64,000 nt of DNA from Candidatus Poribacteria bacterium (GTDB lineage: Bacteria; Poribacteria; WGA-4E; WGA-3G): NCBI GenBank assembly GCA_965198235.1, contig OZ240248.1:4640001-4704000 (forward strand). The letters run 5' to 3'. Below the pieces are notes generated by a model. It was not told the DNA's origin and made no database searches. It saw only the letters and a program-made list of their open reading frames with translations. Shown here one piece after another: positions 6,129-40,245 of the stretch. The position numbers and the translations under genes were made by a program. The number at the start of each line of letters is the position of its first letter. Position 1 is the first letter of the stretch.

Positions 6129-7004
6129 ATGAACGAAAAAGAGATACTTAAAAAAATCCAACGCATTGAAATATTTACCAATCGCCTTGTTAACACTGTC
6201 TTTGCCGGTGAGTATGAAAGCGTCTTCAAAGGACAGGGGATTACCTTCGATGAGGTTCGGGAATATCAGGTAGGTGATGAAATCCGGACGATCGATTGGA
6301 ATGTCACCGCACGCATGGGGCAAGCCTACATCAAGAAGTACGTGGAAGAGCGTGAACTCGTCATGATGTTGGTTGTGGATGTGAGTGCTTCGACCAGTTT
6401 TGGCAGTATCGCTGAGACGAAGGCGGAAATTGCTGCCGAGATTGCAGCACTCCTCGCCTTTTCTGCCATCAAAAACAACGACAAAGTTGGGCTTATCTGT
6501 TTTACGGACACCGTTGAACATTTCGTCGCGCCGCGGAAAGGGAAAAGACACGTTTTACGCGTCGTTCGGGATATTCTCCATTTTCAGCCGAAACAGCCCG
6601 GGACGAACATTGAAACGGCATTGGCGTTCGTCGATCGGGTGCTCAAGCCGCACAGTGTTGTGTTTCTCATCTCAGATTTCAAAGATACGGGGTATGAAAA
6701 GCAGTTACGCTTGAGCAGTAAACAGCACTCACTTATTGCTATTACCTTACAGGACAGGCGCGAGGTGGAATTGCCGGATGTCGGACTCATAGAACTGGAG
6801 GACGCGGAGAGCGGAGAGACGGTTATTGTCGATACACGTTCCGAGGAAGCACGGCAACTCTATACGGAACTTAATCAGCGTGTAGATGCGGAACGCCGAC
6901 AGGTTTTCCGGGCAAATCAAGTGGATTCTATTCATATCAGAACAGATGAACCGTATGTGAAACCGCTTATCCAATTTTTCCGTCAGCGTACCGCCCGACG
7001 CTAA
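6129..7004 (+). CDS. DUF58 (MoxR-associated VWA-like) protein
   Basis: FDEVREYQVGDEIRTIDWNVTAR, VDVSAS and ISDF motifs. Confidence 0.9.
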   Translation: MNEKEILKKIQRIEIFTNRLVNTVFAGEYESVFKGQGITFDEVREYQVGDEIRTIDWNVTARMGQAYIKKYVEERELVMMLVVDVSASTSFGSIAETKAEIAAEIAALLAFSAIKNNDKVGLICFTDTVEHFVAPRKGKRHVLRVVRDILHFQPKQPGTNIETALAFVDRVLKPHSVVFLISDFKDTGYEKQLRLSSKQHSLIAITLQDRREVELPDVGLIELEDAESGETVIVDTRSEEARQLYTELNQRVDAERRQVFRANQVDSIHIRTDEPYVKPLIQFFRQRTARR

Positions 7005-7024
7005 AATAAAATTCTTGTAGGCTT

Positions 7025-7795
7025 ATGAGAAGATTAGAGGTAAAGAATTTAACACAAACCTTTGCTCAAAAAGGCGACCCATTACGAGTCCTGGAGGGTT
7101 TAAACCTCGCTGTTGACGATGGGCAGTTTGTCGCTTTGTTGGGTCCCTCCGGGTGTGGCAAAAGCACGCTTTTTAATATCGTTTCTGGGCTTCTTGTACC
7201 AGACACCGGAGAAATTTACCTCGACAGTGAGCGTATCTACGGCAACACAGGGGATTTCGCCTACATGCAACAGAAGGACCTCCTTTTACCGTGGCGGACG
7301 GTCCTTAGGAACGTACTCGTCGGACCAGAAATTCACAACGAACCGCTTGACACCGCGAAGGTAGAGGCACAACGGCGTTTAGCACAACTCGGATTGAGCG
7401 GATTTGAAAATAGTTATCCGATGCAGCTTTCGGGAGGGATGCGGCAACGCGTCGCGCTCGTCCGGACACTCCTGTTTCGGAAGAGAATTCTGCTATTAGA
7501 TGAACCCTTCGGCGCACTGGATGCAATGACTCGGACCGTCATGCAGTCTATTCTACTCGACATCTGGTCAGAGAGCCGACAGACTGTGCTCCTCATCACC
7601 CACGACGTTGAGGAAGCTCTTATACTTGCTGATAAAATCTACGTGCTGACAGCCAGACCCGCAACGCTAAAAGCAGAAGTCCCTATTCCTCTGTCTCGTC
7701 CGCGGAGCATCACGGATGTCTCCCTCATTCGCCTGAAAAAAGAACTTTTGGCGTTATTACAGGTCGAAATGTCACAGGTTTTCGATGTAGGTTAA
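7025..7795 (+). CDS. ABC transporter ATP-binding protein (NitT/TauB-like)
   Basis: GPSGCGKST, LSGGMRQR, LLLDEPFGALD and ITHD motifs. Confidence 0.92.
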   Translation: MRRLEVKNLTQTFAQKGDPLRVLEGLNLAVDDGQFVALLGPSGCGKSTLFNIVSGLLVPDTGEIYLDSERIYGNTGDFAYMQQKDLLLPWRTVLRNVLVGPEIHNEPLDTAKVEAQRRLAQLGLSGFENSYPMQLSGGMRQRVALVRTLLFRKRILLLDEPFGALDAMTRTVMQSILLDIWSESRQTVLLITHDVEEALILADKIYVLTARPATLKAEVPIPLSRPRSITDVSLIRLKKELLALLQVEMSQVFDVG

Positions 7796-7886
7796 CTCTG
7801 TTTAGGGTCCGAATCCTTTGTCAATGTTCTCTAAAACGAATGTGATGGGCGGTTCATCAAAGTTTACGGATTGGAAACCCCGTGTT

Positions 7887-8912
7887 TTAGTGCGGGGAGG
7901 AAAATCCGCTCCTGTAGTTAAAGTTAAGGCGTGTTAGCACCTTAAAATCCGTAGTTTTTGCTTTTTGAGTGAGGCGTTTACCTTCCAAGGAATATAACGC
8001 TATACCGTGTTTACCGAAGCCACTGATACGTGTAAGACCATATTTGATATGTCTAACCAAAGTATTTTTTACCAATCCATTCCATGTTGTTCCTCCATAA
8101 CGCGGGCGTTTCCCGCCTTTCTGTGGGTTCTGTCTGTGGAGTTCACGTCTCCGTATCGGGATTGGCGATATACAGAAGATTGAAGTATTGTCGACAATAG
8201 GTTTCCCGCCGATTGTCTGATATGCCAAACACCAACTATCGACACAATGTGCGTCAAAATGTTCTGATAGTTTGTTAGACGACTTCTTGAGTCCTAATCC
8301 GTCTCGTATCTCTTTTGTTTCCCACCCTTGAAGTGTCCGTAGTTGCCAACGCTTCTGAACTTCAGAGTAGAACCACTGCTTACCGACTTCCAGAGGACTA
8401 AAGGATTGATTCCACTTTTTCGCATGTTCTATAGTCCGTGCTTTAATATCTTCAACACATACATGCGTGATTGGATACAGTTTGGATAACCAGTCTAATA
8501 TACGCAACTTCCAATCCCATCTTGCGCGTGTGCCTGCGGGGATACGCTCTCTGTTCGTAAGACGATTCGTCCTATTTTTTCGGTTCGGACACTTCCGTGA
8601 ACGCCGTCCTCTACGCAACTCACGTCTCTTTTCAACTTTCTTACTGACTTTGCTATGGGCATCCGCTTGCACATTCAGATAAGTGTGTGATTCACTCTTA
8701 ACCGTAAAGCCTTCTTTCTTACTGCCAGGGTCTATGCCTACAGCAATCTCTTGCTTGTAATAGCGTTCTGCCACTTCTTTGTTAAGCCTGATACAGAAAA
8801 TACCATTATCCCAATAAGGCGTGGCTTCTCCGCTTTTAATCAAATGCCTCGCTACAGGTGGAATCGTAGGCATTAACTGTTCGCCTTCTTTACTCTTTAC
8901 TGATACAAACAT
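7887..8912 (-). CDS. isrB: IsrB OMEGA RNA-guided nickase (RRXRR/PLMP, split RuvC, no HNH), 341 aa
   Basis: QLMPT, RuvC-I GIDPGSK, Arg-rich bridge helix RRELRRGRRSR, RuvC-II CVED, RuvC-III HCVD. No room for an HNH domain. ATG at 8912 follows GGGAG. Confidence 0.88.
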   Translation of the reverse strand: MFVSVKSKEGEQLMPTIPPVARHLIKSGEATPYWDNGIFCIRLNKEVAERYYKQEIAVGIDPGSKKEGFTVKSESHTYLNVQADAHSKVSKKVEKRRELRRGRRSRKCPNRKNRTNRLTNRERIPAGTRARWDWKLRILDWLSKLYPITHVCVEDIKARTIEHAKKWNQSFSPLEVGKQWFYSEVQKRWQLRTLQGWETKEIRDGLGLKKSSNKLSEHFDAHCVDSWCLAYQTIGGKPIVDNTSIFCISPIPIRRRELHRQNPQKGGKRPRYGGTTWNGLVKNTLVRHIKYGLTRISGFGKHGIALYSLEGKRLTQKAKTTDFKVLTRLNFNYRSGFSSPH

Positions 8913-9122
8913 TGTAATCAACTCCCTTTCGGGGTATATGTTGCCCCATCCAGATCACAGGCTCAGAGAGGTATCAGACTTGGGGAGCATCCGATACATT
9001 ACTTTGGCTACCACGCCAAGAGACCGCGATATATTACTGTAGTCAATGCTTTAACTTGTGAAGTGGACGTTTGGTATACGCTTTGCACAAGTTTCCTCCT
9101 CTTTTAGGAGGAGGTCACTGAC
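8913..9122 (-). ncRNA. omegaRNA (HEARO-like) of IsrB element 1
   Basis: Starts GTCAGTG pairing with CATTGAC; TGCTCCCCAAG, CCTCTCTG, GGATGGGGCAACATA and CCCGAAAGGG are shared with 38972-39180. Confidence 0.85.
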
Positions 9123-9143
9123 GTTGTCAAACATCTAGCACGA

Positions 9144-10658
9144 TTATGCTACCGTTGGTGTCATTGTCCATGCGTCTAAACTGTTTAAAATTGCCGCACC
9201 GCCGTGTGCGAAAATTGAGACACCGACGCTGTCCGCTCGCGTCGGGTAGATGCGCTGGGTTAGACATAACCGGCTATTGACAAAAACTTCCAGCACCGAG
9301 CGGTCTAAGAAGATATGAAGTTTCAGGGATTCTCCTTCAACCAGTTTGAAGGGTGCCTCCTGTGAATTTGTATAGCGTTCTCCGCCGTCTTCGTCTTGTG
9401 GTGTCAGACGCGGATATTTTACTTCGTCATCCAAAGTTGATTTCGTGAGATCGATTTTAAGGAATTCGCCAGATGGCGAATGGACAATGGTGGTTTCCTC
9501 CTCGCCATTTGGGGACTTGCGAACCTTCACACCGAATTCTGTAGCACCTCTCGGATCAATTTCCACCTGTAGTTCAAGGCAATCGCCGTTTACATCTTCA
9601 ATATCGATCTCTGTATCTGCATCGAGTCGGGCTGTTTCTTGGTGGTAATGCTTAGCGCGGAGTTTTTCGAGTTCTGGAACGGGTTTGATACAAAGACTTC
9701 CGTCTTCACTCAACGATAGGATCCGCGGCAATGTCATCACGGAAGCCCAGCCGTATTTCTCCCACGGACGAGCTTCGCGAATCCAACCGAAAAAGATACG
9801 TCGTCCGTTATCGTCAAGGAGCGTTTCAGGTCCAGAGAGTTGTCCACCTTGCCAGTTCATACGTCCATGTATTTCAGGATAGAACTGCTCATCTTCGTAA
9901 CGTCCGAGGTAATAATGTGCCATACCGTAAGGGCGGTGCCCATGCATCAGAAGCATATATCTATCGCCGAGCAGAAAGAAATCGGGACAGGCGCAATCTT
10001 CAACCTCATCCGTCCAACGCCGCGAAGACTTGTAGAATGGACCGAGGTATTCCCACTGAATACAGTCGTCCGAACGGAAAAGACTGGTCGTGTCGCCTTC
10101 GTATCCCGGTCGGCTATTTTTGTTGCCTATAAGCGCATAGTAGGTGCCGTTTTCGTACCAGGCACACGGATCAAAAACGTGGTACTCTTGTGGTTCGTCT
10201 GGTATCGGAATGACCGGGTTTGCAGGCGAGGGTGTCCAGTGAATCAAATCGTCATCTTCGCTGGTTGCGATGCAGGTTCCTTGATTCGGCACGTGATAGA
10301 TGAAGGTTGGAAGCGGTGCGTTCTCAATAGCATCTCCGCTATATATGCCGCGTGGCATTGATCCATCAGTGGCAGGTTTTATTGCCGGTGGATGGTGTAT
10401 CCAATGCACCAGATCGCAGCTGGAGGAGTGGTCGAGCACCGGCAGCCATTCATCTGCGTTTGGATTTGGTATTCGCCCAAGATAAAAGACATGGTATCGC
10501 CCATTGAAAAAAATGGTACAGTTTGCATCATTAAAAAACCCATCGGGAGGGAGTAGGTGATAGCGTGGACGGTGGGGGTCGGCCGAGAGATATTCTCGCA
10601 ATTCACGCGCATCCCCGATGCGTTTATGAAGGTTTTCAATTGTAATTGCTGAATTCAT
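9144..10658 (-). CDS. Glycoside hydrolase family 32-like protein
   Basis: HRPRYH, NDAN, DLVHW, FDP, CPDFF, LPRIL and DRSVLEVF motifs. Confidence 0.85.
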   Translation of the reverse strand: MNSAITIENLHKRIGDARELREYLSADPHRPRYHLLPPDGFFNDANCTIFFNGRYHVFYLGRIPNPNADEWLPVLDHSSSCDLVHWIHHPPAIKPATDGSMPRGIYSGDAIENAPLPTFIYHVPNQGTCIATSEDDDLIHWTPSPANPVIPIPDEPQEYHVFDPCAWYENGTYYALIGNKNSRPGYEGDTTSLFRSDDCIQWEYLGPFYKSSRRWTDEVEDCACPDFFLLGDRYMLLMHGHRPYGMAHYYLGRYEDEQFYPEIHGRMNWQGGQLSGPETLLDDNGRRIFFGWIREARPWEKYGWASVMTLPRILSLSEDGSLCIKPVPELEKLRAKHYHQETARLDADTEIDIEDVNGDCLELQVEIDPRGATEFGVKVRKSPNGEEETTIVHSPSGEFLKIDLTKSTLDDEVKYPRLTPQDEDGGERYTNSQEAPFKLVEGESLKLHIFLDRSVLEVFVNSRLCLTQRIYPTRADSVGVSIFAHGGAAILNSLDAWTMTPTVA

Positions 10659-38073: not shown

Positions 38074-38979
38074 ATGATCACCAGCAAAGGATGCATGCAG
38101 TCCACAACGGAACAGCAAAATCTGACTTCTGTTGACATCGATCTGAAGTCAACATCAGAAATCGTCCGGATTTTTCACGAAGAAGATCGGAAAGCGATTA
38201 AGGCAGTAGAAGCAGAATCCGAAGCGATTGCACACGCTATTGAATTATGCGTTGCTGCATTTCGCGCCGGTGGCAGACTGTTTTATGTCGGCGCGGGTAC
38301 GAGTGGTAGACTTGGGGTGTTGGATGCCTCCGAATGTCCACCGACTTTTAGTACGTCCCCAGAGATGGTCCAAGGGATAATTGCTGGTGGGGACGTTGCC
38401 TTACGTCGCTCGGTGGAAGGTGAAGAGGATAAGCTTGAAAGTGGTGCGCTCGCTGTCCGGGAGCGACAACTCACATCACAAGATGTGCTCGTCGGCATCG
38501 CAAGCAGTGGACGGACGCCTTATGTTATAGGGGCTTTGAGGGAGGCGCGTGCTATTGGTGCGACAACAATATTTCTCTGCTGCGTTCCACCTCCTGAGCA
38601 ATTAAAAGGATGGGTGACGCATTTCATCACACCCATTGTCGGACCGGAGATTATCACCGGCTCAACCCGATTGAAAGCGGGAACAGCCACAAAGTTGGTT
38701 CTGAACATGTTGACGACTGCTTCTATGATCAAACTGGGTAAGGTCTACAATAATCTGATGGTAGACGTACACGCCTCTAACACGAAACTGGTCGCGCGGA
38801 GCATCCGAATTGTCCAAGCCGTCACTGGGGTTGATGCTGTGGTGGCTGAGGAAGCGTTAGCACGGGCAGGCGGTCGTGCTAAACTCGCTATTGTAATGCT
38901 CGCGAAAGGACTGAATCCGACGGACGCGAATACACTATTAGATGAACATGAGGGATTTCTAAGGCAAATTCTTCAGTAA
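38074..38979 (+). CDS. murQ: N-acetylmuramic acid 6-phosphate etherase
   Basis: GAGTSGRLGVLDASECPPTF, GSTRLKAGTATK and NLMVD motifs. Confidence 0.95.
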   Translation: MITSKGCMQSTTEQQNLTSVDIDLKSTSEIVRIFHEEDRKAIKAVEAESEAIAHAIELCVAAFRAGGRLFYVGAGTSGRLGVLDASECPPTFSTSPEMVQGIIAGGDVALRRSVEGEEDKLESGALAVRERQLTSQDVLVGIASSGRTPYVIGALREARAIGATTIFLCCVPPPEQLKGWVTHFITPIVGPEIITGSTRLKAGTATKLVLNMLTTASMIKLGKVYNNLMVDVHASNTKLVARSIRIVQAVTGVDAVVAEEALARAGGRAKLAIVMLAKGLNPTDANTLLDEHEGFLRQILQ

Positions 38980-39180
38980 CTCCACGCTAAAGCGTGGAGA
39001 TTGTAGAATATCCCGAGCCAACGGGGGACCCTGCAACGCGAGATGCTGAATACACGCACATATCGCGGACCTTGTGGTGGCACACAACAAGACGGTACTA
39101 GGTGCTCCCCAAGCCTGTATCCTCTCTGGTTCCGTGATGTGGATGGGGCAACATACAACCCGAAAGGGGATTTACTAACT
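38972..39180 (+). ncRNA. omegaRNA (HEARO-like) of IsrB element 2
   Basis: TTCAGTA pairs with TGCTGAA; CTCCACGC-TAAA-GCGTGGAG end hairpin; conserved blocks shared with 8913-9122. Confidence 0.85.
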
Positions 39181-40245
39181 ATGTTAGTTCCAGTAAAAAC
39201 GAAAGACAGTGAAAAGTTAATGCCAACCACTCCTGAAAGGGCGGCTATGATGATTAAGTGTGGCGATGCTACGCCTTACTGGAGTAATGGTATATTTTGT
39301 ATAAGACTCAATGTAGAACCCTCTGGAAGATACAAACAGGATATAGCAGTAGGCGTAGATCCTGGCAGTAAGAAGGAAGGTTTTACAGTTAAGAGTGAGT
39401 CTCATACTTACCTGAATGTGCAAGTAGATGCCCACAACAAAATCGGTAAGAAAATCAAGAATAGGCGGGAACTACGCAGAGGTAGAAGGGCGCGTAAGTG
39501 TCCTAATAGAAAGAACCGCATGAACCGCTTAGCCAACAAGCATCGTATACCAGCAGGCACACGCGCAAGATGGGATTGGAAACTACGCATATTAGATTGG
39601 TTGGCTAAGATATATCCAGTCACGCATGTATGTGTAGAAAATATCAAGGCACACACTAAGCAGTATCAAAAGCGTTGGAATCAATCGTTTAGCCCGCTAG
39701 AAGTCGGTAAAGAGTGGTTCTATAGCGAAATCTGCAAAAAGTGGAAATTGTTCACGCTGCAAGGGCACGAGACCAAAGAACTGCGCGATAGATTAGGTCT
39801 CAAAAAGTCATCTAACAAAGTCGCAGAGACGTTTGACGCACATTGTGTAGATAGTTGGGTGTTGGCATATCATACTATTGGCGGTGATCCTATAGTAGAC
39901 AACACCGATATATTTTGTATTTTACCATTCCAAGTAAAGCGTCGTACGTTGCATAGACAACTGCCACAGAAAGGTGGTAAGAGACCAAGATTTGGTGGAA
40001 CAAGATGCCTTGGACTGAGTAAAAACACATTGGTTAAACATCTTAAACACGGATTAGCAGTGATATGCGGACACCAACAAGGTGGATTTTCCTTGCAACC
40101 TATTCAAGGTGGAAAACGTGTTGCATTAACAGCAAAACGCACTGATTTTAAGGTATTAAAGAAACTGAATTTCCGATACAAAACTGTAAGTCAAGTAATA
40201 TCTATACAACAGAAAGATATTGCGTTACAGCTAACATTATTTTAG
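39181..40245 (+). CDS. isrB: IsrB OMEGA nickase, 354 aa
   Basis: KLMPT, GVDPGSK, RRELRRGRRAR, CVEN, HCVD; no HNH. Clear paralogue of 7887-8912. The longer ORF from 39043 reads through the omegaRNA. Confidence 0.88.
   Translation: MLVPVKTKDSEKLMPTTPERAAMMIKCGDATPYWSNGIFCIRLNVEPSGRYKQDIAVGVDPGSKKEGFTVKSESHTYLNVQVDAHNKIGKKIKNRRELRRGRRARKCPNRKNRMNRLANKHRIPAGTRARWDWKLRILDWLAKIYPVTHVCVENIKAHTKQYQKRWNQSFSPLEVGKEWFYSEICKKWKLFTLQGHETKELRDRLGLKKSSNKVAETFDAHCVDSWVLAYHTIGGDPIVDNTDIFCILPFQVKRRTLHRQLPQKGGKRPRFGGTRCLGLSKNTLVKHLKHGLAVICGHQQGGFSLQPIQGGKRVALTAKRTDFKVLKKLNFRYKTVSQVISIQQKDIALQLTLF

Follow-up and report, generated by a model that had tools for sequence, protein, structure and literature searches.

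The segment 9122..7858, on the minus strand, of a 64,000-nt stretch of DNA (the window: assembly GCA_965198235.1 of Candidatus Poribacteria bacterium, contig OZ240248.1, positions 4,640,001-4,704,000 of the forward strand) is, with high confidence, an intact non-autonomous element of the IS200/IS605 family of insertion sequences (IS) and of the IsrB type. A covarying RNA of 210 nt lies directly upstream of isrB, and its first base is also the first base of the element. The gene encodes a full-length IsrB with a PLMP-like domain, a split RuvC with a bridge helix and a C-terminal domain interacting with the target-adjacent motif (TAM), and carries no HNH. The original prediction, made from the letters of the DNA, had described a complete system with a 341-amino-acid (aa) protein having intact D/E/H-D RuvC residues, a PLMP-like N-terminus, a bridge helix and no HNH, together with an omegaRNA of about 210 nt upstream and both IS ends; all these parts were recovered by the analyses reported below. 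To our knowledge, no relative on the Cas9 line is smaller than IsrB, of which only a few members have been studied. The host is an uncultured sponge symbiont, and the genome around the window amounts to 5.17 Mb.

Extent of the element and its family

Relatives of the window IsrB are encoded in 382 of 500 candidate stretches from a public genome collection. The best 80 all come from metagenome-assembled genomes of Candidatus Poribacteria and share 73-85% amino-acid identity with it. Besides the window copy (copy A), the same genome (contig G000:C1) holds five near full-length copies, B to F, at 69-73% nucleotide identity, and many fragments. Open frames of 341-355 aa are found in copies A to E, and codon 166 of copy F is an in-frame TGA. 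The family is large: 4441 proteins were found in one database at E<=1e-5, and 1124 representatives (50% identity) reached E<=0.001. It documents a heavy IS200/IS605-IsrB activity in Candidatus Poribacteria.

Both boundaries can be read from the onset and the end of conservation. The 5' alignment gathers the window and 68 loci (12 of the 80 were omitted, their BLAST match starting beyond base 70 or their flank being short). In all 69 regions conservation sets in at GTCA(G/A)(T/C)NAC, which corresponds to window 9122, and the 20 bases before the element are unrelated (68 unique 20-mers). The 3' alignment has 76 rows, namely the window, copies B and C and 73 loci (seven loci with short matches or flanks were omitted). 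Conservation stops there at a G followed by ATGA, with unrelated sequence thereafter. Furthermore, the BLAST alignment spans the element from base 1 to base 1265 (query 9122..7858) in nine of the 80 best loci.

Empty sites, target gene and TAM

Sites devoid of the element were sought by querying 40 relatives with the 3' part of the neighbouring GH32 hydrolase gene, and the 11 best loci of the same genus (L012-L022) were examined. Ten of them have a 296-aa gene between the GH32 gene and an ABC ATPase gene. The intact gene of L012 matches the Pfam families NAD_binding_2 (E 1.5e-42) and NAD_binding_11 and is 3-hydroxyisobutyrate-dehydrogenase-like. The target is uninterrupted in nine of the 11 loci, where ...GATGTTTGACAA(C/T) is joined directly to ATGAAC...; the fuller consensus of these nine reads ...TTACGAGATGTTTGA(C/T)AA(C/T) joined to ATGAA(C/T)CG.... 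As for the two others, the junction of L016 falls outside the part of the locus read, and L022 (genome G008) is without the dehydrogenase gene. The insertion point is located after codon 277 of the 296-codon dehydrogenase gene, in the same sense and immediately 5' of ATGA. The empty junction that had been predicted, TTTGACAAC followed directly by ATGAACCGCCC, proves right to the base, as it is read uninterrupted in these related genomes.

When occupied and empty sites are compared for copies A, B and C, neither junction shows a duplicated base; the element is therefore delimited as in Table 1, and ATGA is assigned to the target. For copy B, the flanks abut in genome G005, where the motif position reads ACGA, and the right flank begins with ATGA in three more genomes. 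For copy C, ATGA stands at the junction in all seven loci, and BLAST puts both flanks adjacent in three of them. In the 3' alignment, 74 of the 76 rows have ATGA right after the element (in the same columns for 56 and, as read by eye, shifted by 1-3 columns for 18), the exceptions being GTGA in L082 and ATGG in L095. The TAM ATGA proposed at the outset is thus borne out both across the family and in the uninterrupted target of three independent insertions; this genomic reading of the TAM would accord with the published NTGA.

The IsrB protein

The ATG at 8912 is conserved across copies, in agreement with a protein of 341 aa. Its sole Pfam family is RRXRR (PF14239, E 4.3e-30, residues 6-160), and no HNH family is found in it by Pfam at E<=1. 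The NCBIfam model guided_IscB covers the N-terminal half only (residues 8-160), with 93.9 bits for a cut-off of 175. Among PDB entries, the top match by phmmer is 8DMB, the IsrB of Desulfovirgula thermocuniculi (DtIsrB; E 4.9e-35, residues 7-284). A profile built from 51 sequences matches the same entry with E 7.8e-87 over profile positions 4-340, C-terminal domain included.

Structure comparison leads to the same protein. An AlphaFold2 model obtained from 51 diverse family sequences (pLDDT 88.3, pTM 0.85) ranks 8DMB first in a Foldseek search (E 1.2e-28, TMq 0.80, TMt 0.83, alignment of 351 columns). IscB structures come next, with TMt <=0.62 among full-size entries, RuvC resolvases are far behind, and distant matches to CjCas9 appear at E of about 0.02. 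The alignment with 8DMB spans RuvC I, the bridge helix and RuvC II/III. It also includes the C-terminal TAM-interacting domain, which is modelled as beta-strands at residues 284-335 with a pLDDT of about 90.

Residues D61, E154, H222 and D225 align with the RuvC I, II and III motifs of DtIsrB, and we take them to be catalytic from established knowledge of RuvC, IscB and Cas9. Across the 51 aligned sequences, E154 does not vary and the three others are conserved at 90% or more. The QLMP motif at residues 12-15 aligns with the PLMP of DtIsrB; L13, M14 and P15 are invariant in 16 close relatives, P15 also in the 51 sequences, and residues 3-43 form a beta-sheet and a helix in the model. In the same way, an arginine-rich stretch (residues ~90-118) lines up with the bridge helix of DtIsrB, and the linker between RuvC II and III with its short linker.

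The dN/dS ratio of isrB is 0.07-0.12 against the three closest relatives (L029, L030 and L039), to which these ratios are restricted because dS is saturated between copy A and B, C, D, E and L034. This shows that the isrB lineage was under selection until recently.

The omegaRNA scaffold

Covariation was analysed on 48 non-redundant upstream regions, from the window, the five other copies of the same genome and 42 loci below 95% identity; L045 and L047 were excluded owing to an insertion before the ATG. RNAalifold gave 39 pairs, 30 of them with compensatory changes, and two features were added to this structure, a pseudoknot found by eye (CCCCA with UGGGG) and a hairpin over the start codon. 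In the final structure of 50 pairs, 94.8% of 2358 cells pair and 32 pairs show changes on both sides. None of 500 shuffles matches the observed covariation on any of five measures, and sliding the partners by 1-3 columns, as a control, makes pairing drop to 29-45%. The pseudoknot is closed by A-U in 30 sequences and by U-A in 14.

The scaffold is predicted to form 11 helices over its 210 nt, with one supported pseudoknot; an additional hairpin across the AUG reaches to about 8901, beyond the scaffold. The window copy preserves all of these helices. Helix 1 (9114..9095) forms the hairpin of the transposon end and shows changes on both sides at all of its seven pairs. At the other extremity, small covarying hairpins (window 8901-8925 (-), A1 columns 202-240) lie over the GGGAG that precedes the isrB start and over the AUG. 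Since they cover both, folding of the 3' end of the guide RNA may compete with isrB translation.

At curated thresholds, Rfam gives no match to the upstream RNA. Below them, HEARO (RF02033) matches weakly, although over its full length and in exact register (window 8914-9122 (-), 17.6 bits, E 0.11 in a 271-nt search), and two protein-less derivatives, L126 and L128, score 27.7 and 23.3 bits with it. Two other weak Rfam matches on the plus strand were rejected: HgcC at 7822-7921 (7000-10000 searched at E<=1), read as the hairpin of the 3' end, and snoR110 (22 bits, E 0.17, in 8880-9150), taken as chance.

Guide position and later deletion of the flank

Hirano et al. (2022, PMC9581776) describe IsrB as a protein of about 350 aa whose omegaRNA of about 300 nt comprises, in DtIsrB, a 20-nt guide and a 262-nt scaffold. 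If the guide had the same length here, it would be the 20 nt 9142..9123, as originally predicted. The DNA does encode these 20 nt, but only the 3' 13-14 nt (9136/9135..9123, A/GATGTTTGACAAC) belong to the original target, and the 5' 6-7 nt (CGTGCT) are sequence that borders the GH32 gene on its downstream side. The window has TCGTGCTA after the GH32 stop, then directly GATGTTTGACAAC and the element. In relatives, about 850 bp separate TCGTGCTA from GATGTTTGACAAC, namely a spacer and the first ~273 dehydrogenase codons; taking L012 as an example, the stretch between ...GTGCTA and GATGTTTGACAA... is missing from the window. The 20-nt guide position is therefore chimeric, a deletion of about 850 bp having joined the sequence downstream of GH32 to 13-14 nt of the target.

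The dehydrogenase gene was lost twice, with different junctions, in this genome and in G008 (L022). It thus appears dispensable, and its independent loss suggests ordinary gene decay. A deletion caused by the transposase or by IsrB was considered and rejected, the scar having no TCAT/ATGA motif and at most 1 nt of microhomology. The deletion probably reflects the decay of a gene already truncated by the insertion.

Possible transcription of the locus

Twelve runs were found. The contigs used come from X1, X5 and X6, which are RNA libraries of one sponge-metatranscriptome study, and from X2, whose kind is unknown. One X1 contig of 1834 nt (record 6) spans 8950-9900 and beyond, that is to say the end of GH32, the guide and most of the scaffold; 8923-8949 is bridged by none of the listed contigs. 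Summed depth rises 10- to 50-fold over 8866-9126, with about 1150 over 8953-9039, and X2 peaks likewise (about 6700 vs a few hundred). The locus is present in an RNA library, but such contigs cannot establish a transcript, DNA carry-over being possible.

The gene upstream of the element was co-oriented with it at the time of insertion (dehydrogenase) and still is now (GH32). Read-through from GH32, which the original prediction had considered probable, would accord with what Meers et al. (10.1101/2023.03.14.532601) describe for IscB. According to these authors, the IscB scaffold derives from the right end of the element, the guide lies outside it, transcription has to originate outside as well, and the upstream gene tends to be co-oriented.

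Transposon ends and mobility

The element has a subterminal hairpin near each end, both on the same strand (9114..9095 and 7897..7878). Read on the plus strand, it starts with CAAAG after TCAT, and its hairpins lie 20 nt from the left terminus (7878-7897) and 8 nt from the right one (9095-9114). Both loops are TTTTAG, and the right hairpin is followed by TCACTGAC (...CTGAC), where the element ends. The isrB stop codon sits in the loop of the TAM-side hairpin, which is kept, with stem changes, in the 76 aligned 3' ends.

Six matches to Y1_Tnp (PF01797) were found in the genome, and three of these transposases adjoin tnpB-sized open reading frames (ORFs) of 370 and 410 aa. Two IS605-type elements, L024 and L025 (G000:C1:4381488-4381841 and 4792784-4793137), associate a tnpA of 137 aa with an adjacent tnpB-sized ORF of 410 aa; they are 99% identical to each other, which suggests recent activity. 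They start with CAAAC after TTAT, then come about 20 nt and a hairpin with a CTTTAG loop; the other end is a hairpin followed by AGTATGTCAG (...GTCAG). The right and left ends of these two resident elements match the hairpins of the IsrB element in loop and geometry. As the ends share their design with those of tnpA+tnpB elements, a TnpA of the same genome could plausibly mobilise the IsrB element in trans. A search by motif located 16 guide-side ends, none of which adjoins a tnpA position of the genome.

The other three Y1 genes (G000:C1:606918, 1898775 and 3853757; L026-L028) encode 159-163 aa and are flanked by inverted and tandem repeats; in L027, for instance, a unit of 121 bp occurs four times. 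They resemble REP-associated tyrosine transposases, which is a tentative label.

Protein-less derivatives and a second IsrB element

The RNA profile has 16 matches in the genome. Six are full copies and 10 are without a full isrB, and two of the 16 are degenerate. C1:2377106, about 355 bp long, derives from an element by internal deletion. In four others of about 250 bp (C1:1012452, 1866635 and 3046388 (+), 3157919 (-)), exactly the first 83 positions of the omegaRNA profile are kept, followed by a short conserved part of a different kind and a canonical 3' end; with both transposon ends present, they make up a family of miniature derivatives.

Three protein-less elements, each about 440 bp long, were observed in this genome (C1:1070729, 4416412 and 4757287 (+); loci L125:80-530, L126:83-530 and L127:87-540). 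Their omegaRNA is almost complete, one of its hairpins having an extra insertion, and they retain both transposon ends, with the usual 3' hairpin followed by ATGA or ATGG. They share, in addition, a non-coding segment of about 170 nt that is conserved among the three (mean column identity 79%) and for which Rfam gives no match at E<=1 beyond chance level. These elements are possibly standalone guide RNAs. Protein-less elements keeping their guide RNA have been described for related families (10.1101/2023.03.14.532601). It could be speculated that the Poribacteria IsrB represents a distinct compact omegaRNA type which, with its satellites, forms a multi-guide IsrB network acting in trans, an idea that we regard as rather unlikely. 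If the ~440-bp satellites were expressed and loaded by the IsrB of other copies, one genome would run a multi-guide network, and the conserved segment would be an undescribed RNA module.

The window also contains a second IsrB element, copy D (~38972-40245 (+), G000:C1:4678972-4680245), which belongs to a more divergent subfamily. Its omegaRNA begins with TTCAGTAAC and its ORF of 354 aa, about 70% identical to the window IsrB, has a C-terminal extension. The 3' end of copy D is less clear than those of copies A to C.

Proposed mechanism and alternative readings

The flank and the scaffold would be transcribed by an RNA polymerase that enters the element from outside, in the simplest case from the co-oriented GH32 gene, and the 5' segment derived from the flank would serve as the guide. 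The IsrB-omegaRNA complex would then recognise the element-free allele, through the guide match and then ATGA, and nick the non-target strand, which could favour copying of the element back from the sister chromosome. The occupied site would be immune because GTCA, and not ATGA, follows the guide match. A Y1 TnpA from another locus of the genome would carry out excision and insertion in trans. The element is of a kind already solved structurally and tested biochemically, and the understanding of the mechanism is unchanged.

Several observations weigh against this reading. The guide position matches the ancestral target over just 13-14 contiguous nt, and the target gene is gone from the genome, so that, barring alleles in the population, there is no cognate empty site to home into. 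In the X1 contigs the exact locus (0-2 differences) has a flat depth of 21-28, as its neighbours do; the peak of summed depth reflects the other copies of this multi-copy repeat, since X2 shows the same peak. HEARO, the sole curated model of an IscB guide RNA, scores far under its gathering score of 83, and the scaffold has 210 nt vs 262 nt in DtIsrB (PMC9581776). A first AlphaFold2 model, from a shallow alignment of 16 close relatives, had a pLDDT of 53.2 and was unusable. There is no tnpA inside or beside the window element or the other IsrB copies, and it is the similarity of the ends that points to a mobilising TnpA, if any. Lastly, RNA-guided nicking, and with it the "reprogrammable nickase" of the original prediction, is extrapolated from homology and should be read as a putative activity.

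Another reading deserves real, if minority, credence: the element would be structurally intact but stranded, with a guide that has no existing site and an RNA perhaps unmade, a fossil on its way to decay. The deletion of the target gene down to 13-14 nt of the original flank fits this, as do the interrupted frame of copy F, the 10 RNA-profile matches without a full isrB and RNA-library contigs that do not demonstrate transcription. However, the ORF is full length with all catalytic residues, all RNA helices are intact, and the low dN/dS speaks for selection on the lineage until recently; furthermore, both ends are intact, so that TnpA could move the element to a new site, where it would gain a new guide.

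A different source of the RNA is also conceivable. The deletion would have brought to the junction a putative sigma-70-like promoter that overlaps the GH32 stop, and the omegaRNA could be made from it rather than by read-through. If it were used, the RNA would start near 9136, 7-8 nt downstream of this 10/12 match to the consensus, and its guide of about 14 nt would coincide with the part still matching the original target; the -10 region of relatives (GGTAGT/GGTAAT) is a poorer match. We nevertheless hold this origin to be improbable, since sigma-70-like sites are not significantly enriched in the region (6 vs 4.0 +/- 2.1 in shuffles), the sigma-70 consensus may not be that of Poribacteria, and the contigs carry no 5' ends.

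That the upstream region is mainly a DNA transposon end with a 5' untranslated region controlling isrB translation, and not a guide RNA, seems very improbable: helix 1 does coincide with a transposase-type end hairpin, helices 10 and 11 lie over the Shine-Dalgarno-like GGGAG and over the AUG, as expected of a translational regulator, and the HEARO match is weak, but 11 helices with compensatory changes and a covarying pseudoknot exceed the needs of an end or a leader, the same RNA is kept in protein-less derivatives with no ORF to regulate, and the solved DtIsrB uses such an RNA from the transposon end (PMC9581776).

The preferred reading, an intact IsrB element with its guide RNA, provides a clean natural example, in which boundaries, TAM and original target can be read from the empty alleles of sister species for three independent insertions. 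It supplies a ready-made set of guide, TAM and target for a nicking assay, and a compact candidate (210-nt RNA, 341-aa protein) from a very large family offering many natural variants for engineering. It is also a case of a guide-supplying flank remodelled by a later deletion. Published lists of IsrB loci (Altae-Tran et al. 2021) reportedly exist and may already include Poribacteria members. No paper on Poribacteria and IscB was found in the literature, "Poribacteria IsrB" not itself having been searched. The features of the element and its surroundings are gathered in Table 1.

Table 1. Positions, in the window, of the IsrB element, its parts and its flanks
Feature	Position	Strand	Remarks
Whole IsrB element, non-autonomous, IS200/IS605-type	9122..7858	-	1265 bp, without target duplication; empty sites in relatives
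omegaRNA guide position	9142..9123	-	20 nt if as in DtIsrB; compared with uninterrupted loci L012-L021
omegaRNA scaffold	9122..8913	-	210 nt to the start codon; covariation, weak HEARO RF02033 match
isrB coding sequence	7887..8912	-	341 aa + stop; ATG at 8912 conserved across copies; within ORF 7887..8921
TAM ATGA (TCAT on +)	7854..7857	-	Part of the target, not of the element; presumed TnpA target tetranucleotide; single in empty sites
Guide-side subterminal hairpin	9095..9114	-	CCTCCTC/GAGGAGG, loop CTAAAA; first omegaRNA stem-loop; presumed TnpA "right end" hairpin
TAM-side subterminal hairpin	7878..7897	-	5 G-C + 2 G-T pairs; presumed TnpA "left end" hairpin
Deletion scar	9135..9137	-	~850 bp gone vs 10 of 11 related loci; junction ambiguous by one A
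Decayed 3' dehydrogenase remnant	7797..7857	-	Last ~19 codons; in-frame stop, TTTTAG vs TTTTGG in relatives
Sigma-70-like site, TGGACA-16-CATAAT	9170..9143	-	Overlaps GH32 stop; 10/12 match; lead only
GH32 hydrolase gene	9144..10658	-	Neighbour
ABC ATPase gene	7025..7795	+	Neighbour

Comparison with known systems

The closest known system is DtIsrB (8DMB). Both proteins have about 350 aa (PMC9581776), share the order PLMP, RuvC I, bridge helix, RuvC II/III and TAM-interacting domain, and are without HNH. In both, the guide RNA lies upstream and begins at the transposon end, and its first stem-loop is the end hairpin; in DtIsrB this stem-loop is needless for nicking and is linked to transposon mobility. 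DtIsrB nicks the non-target strand beside 5'-NTGA-3', and the TAM here would be ATGA. On the other hand, identity with the window IsrB is about 30%. The solved DtIsrB RNA has 12 helices and two named pseudoknots, whereas 11 helices and one supported pseudoknot are predicted here.

IscB and its HEARO omegaRNA (OgeuIscB, 7XHT/7UTN; RF02033) have in common with the window system the N-terminal PLMP/RuvC/bridge-helix part and an upstream omegaRNA with a 5' guide. They differ by an HNH domain inserted in RuvC, with which IscB cuts both strands; the window IsrB is without it.

The elements of Geobacillus stearothermophilus carrying IscB or TnpB, and the PATEs, illustrate the same way of life (Meers et al., 10.1101/2023.03.14.532601). 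Most IscB copies are without tnpA, and the nuclease cuts the empty donor joint, after which the element is copied back. As here, these elements have no tnpA and have ends like those of a resident tnpA-bearing element, their TAM is the target motif of the transposase, the guide lies outside and the upstream gene is co-oriented; PATEs, like the protein-less derivatives described above, retain guide RNA and ends. The differences are that the effector is here an IsrB without HNH, that the host is an uncultured sponge symbiont and that homing would proceed by a nick instead of a double-strand break.

Finally, Cas9 shares the RuvC/bridge-helix ancestry, and in Cas9, as presumably in the window system, the motif stands on the non-target strand, 3' to the guide match (PMC9581776). 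The window system has no REC lobe, HNH or CRISPR array, and its guide is set by the site of insertion.

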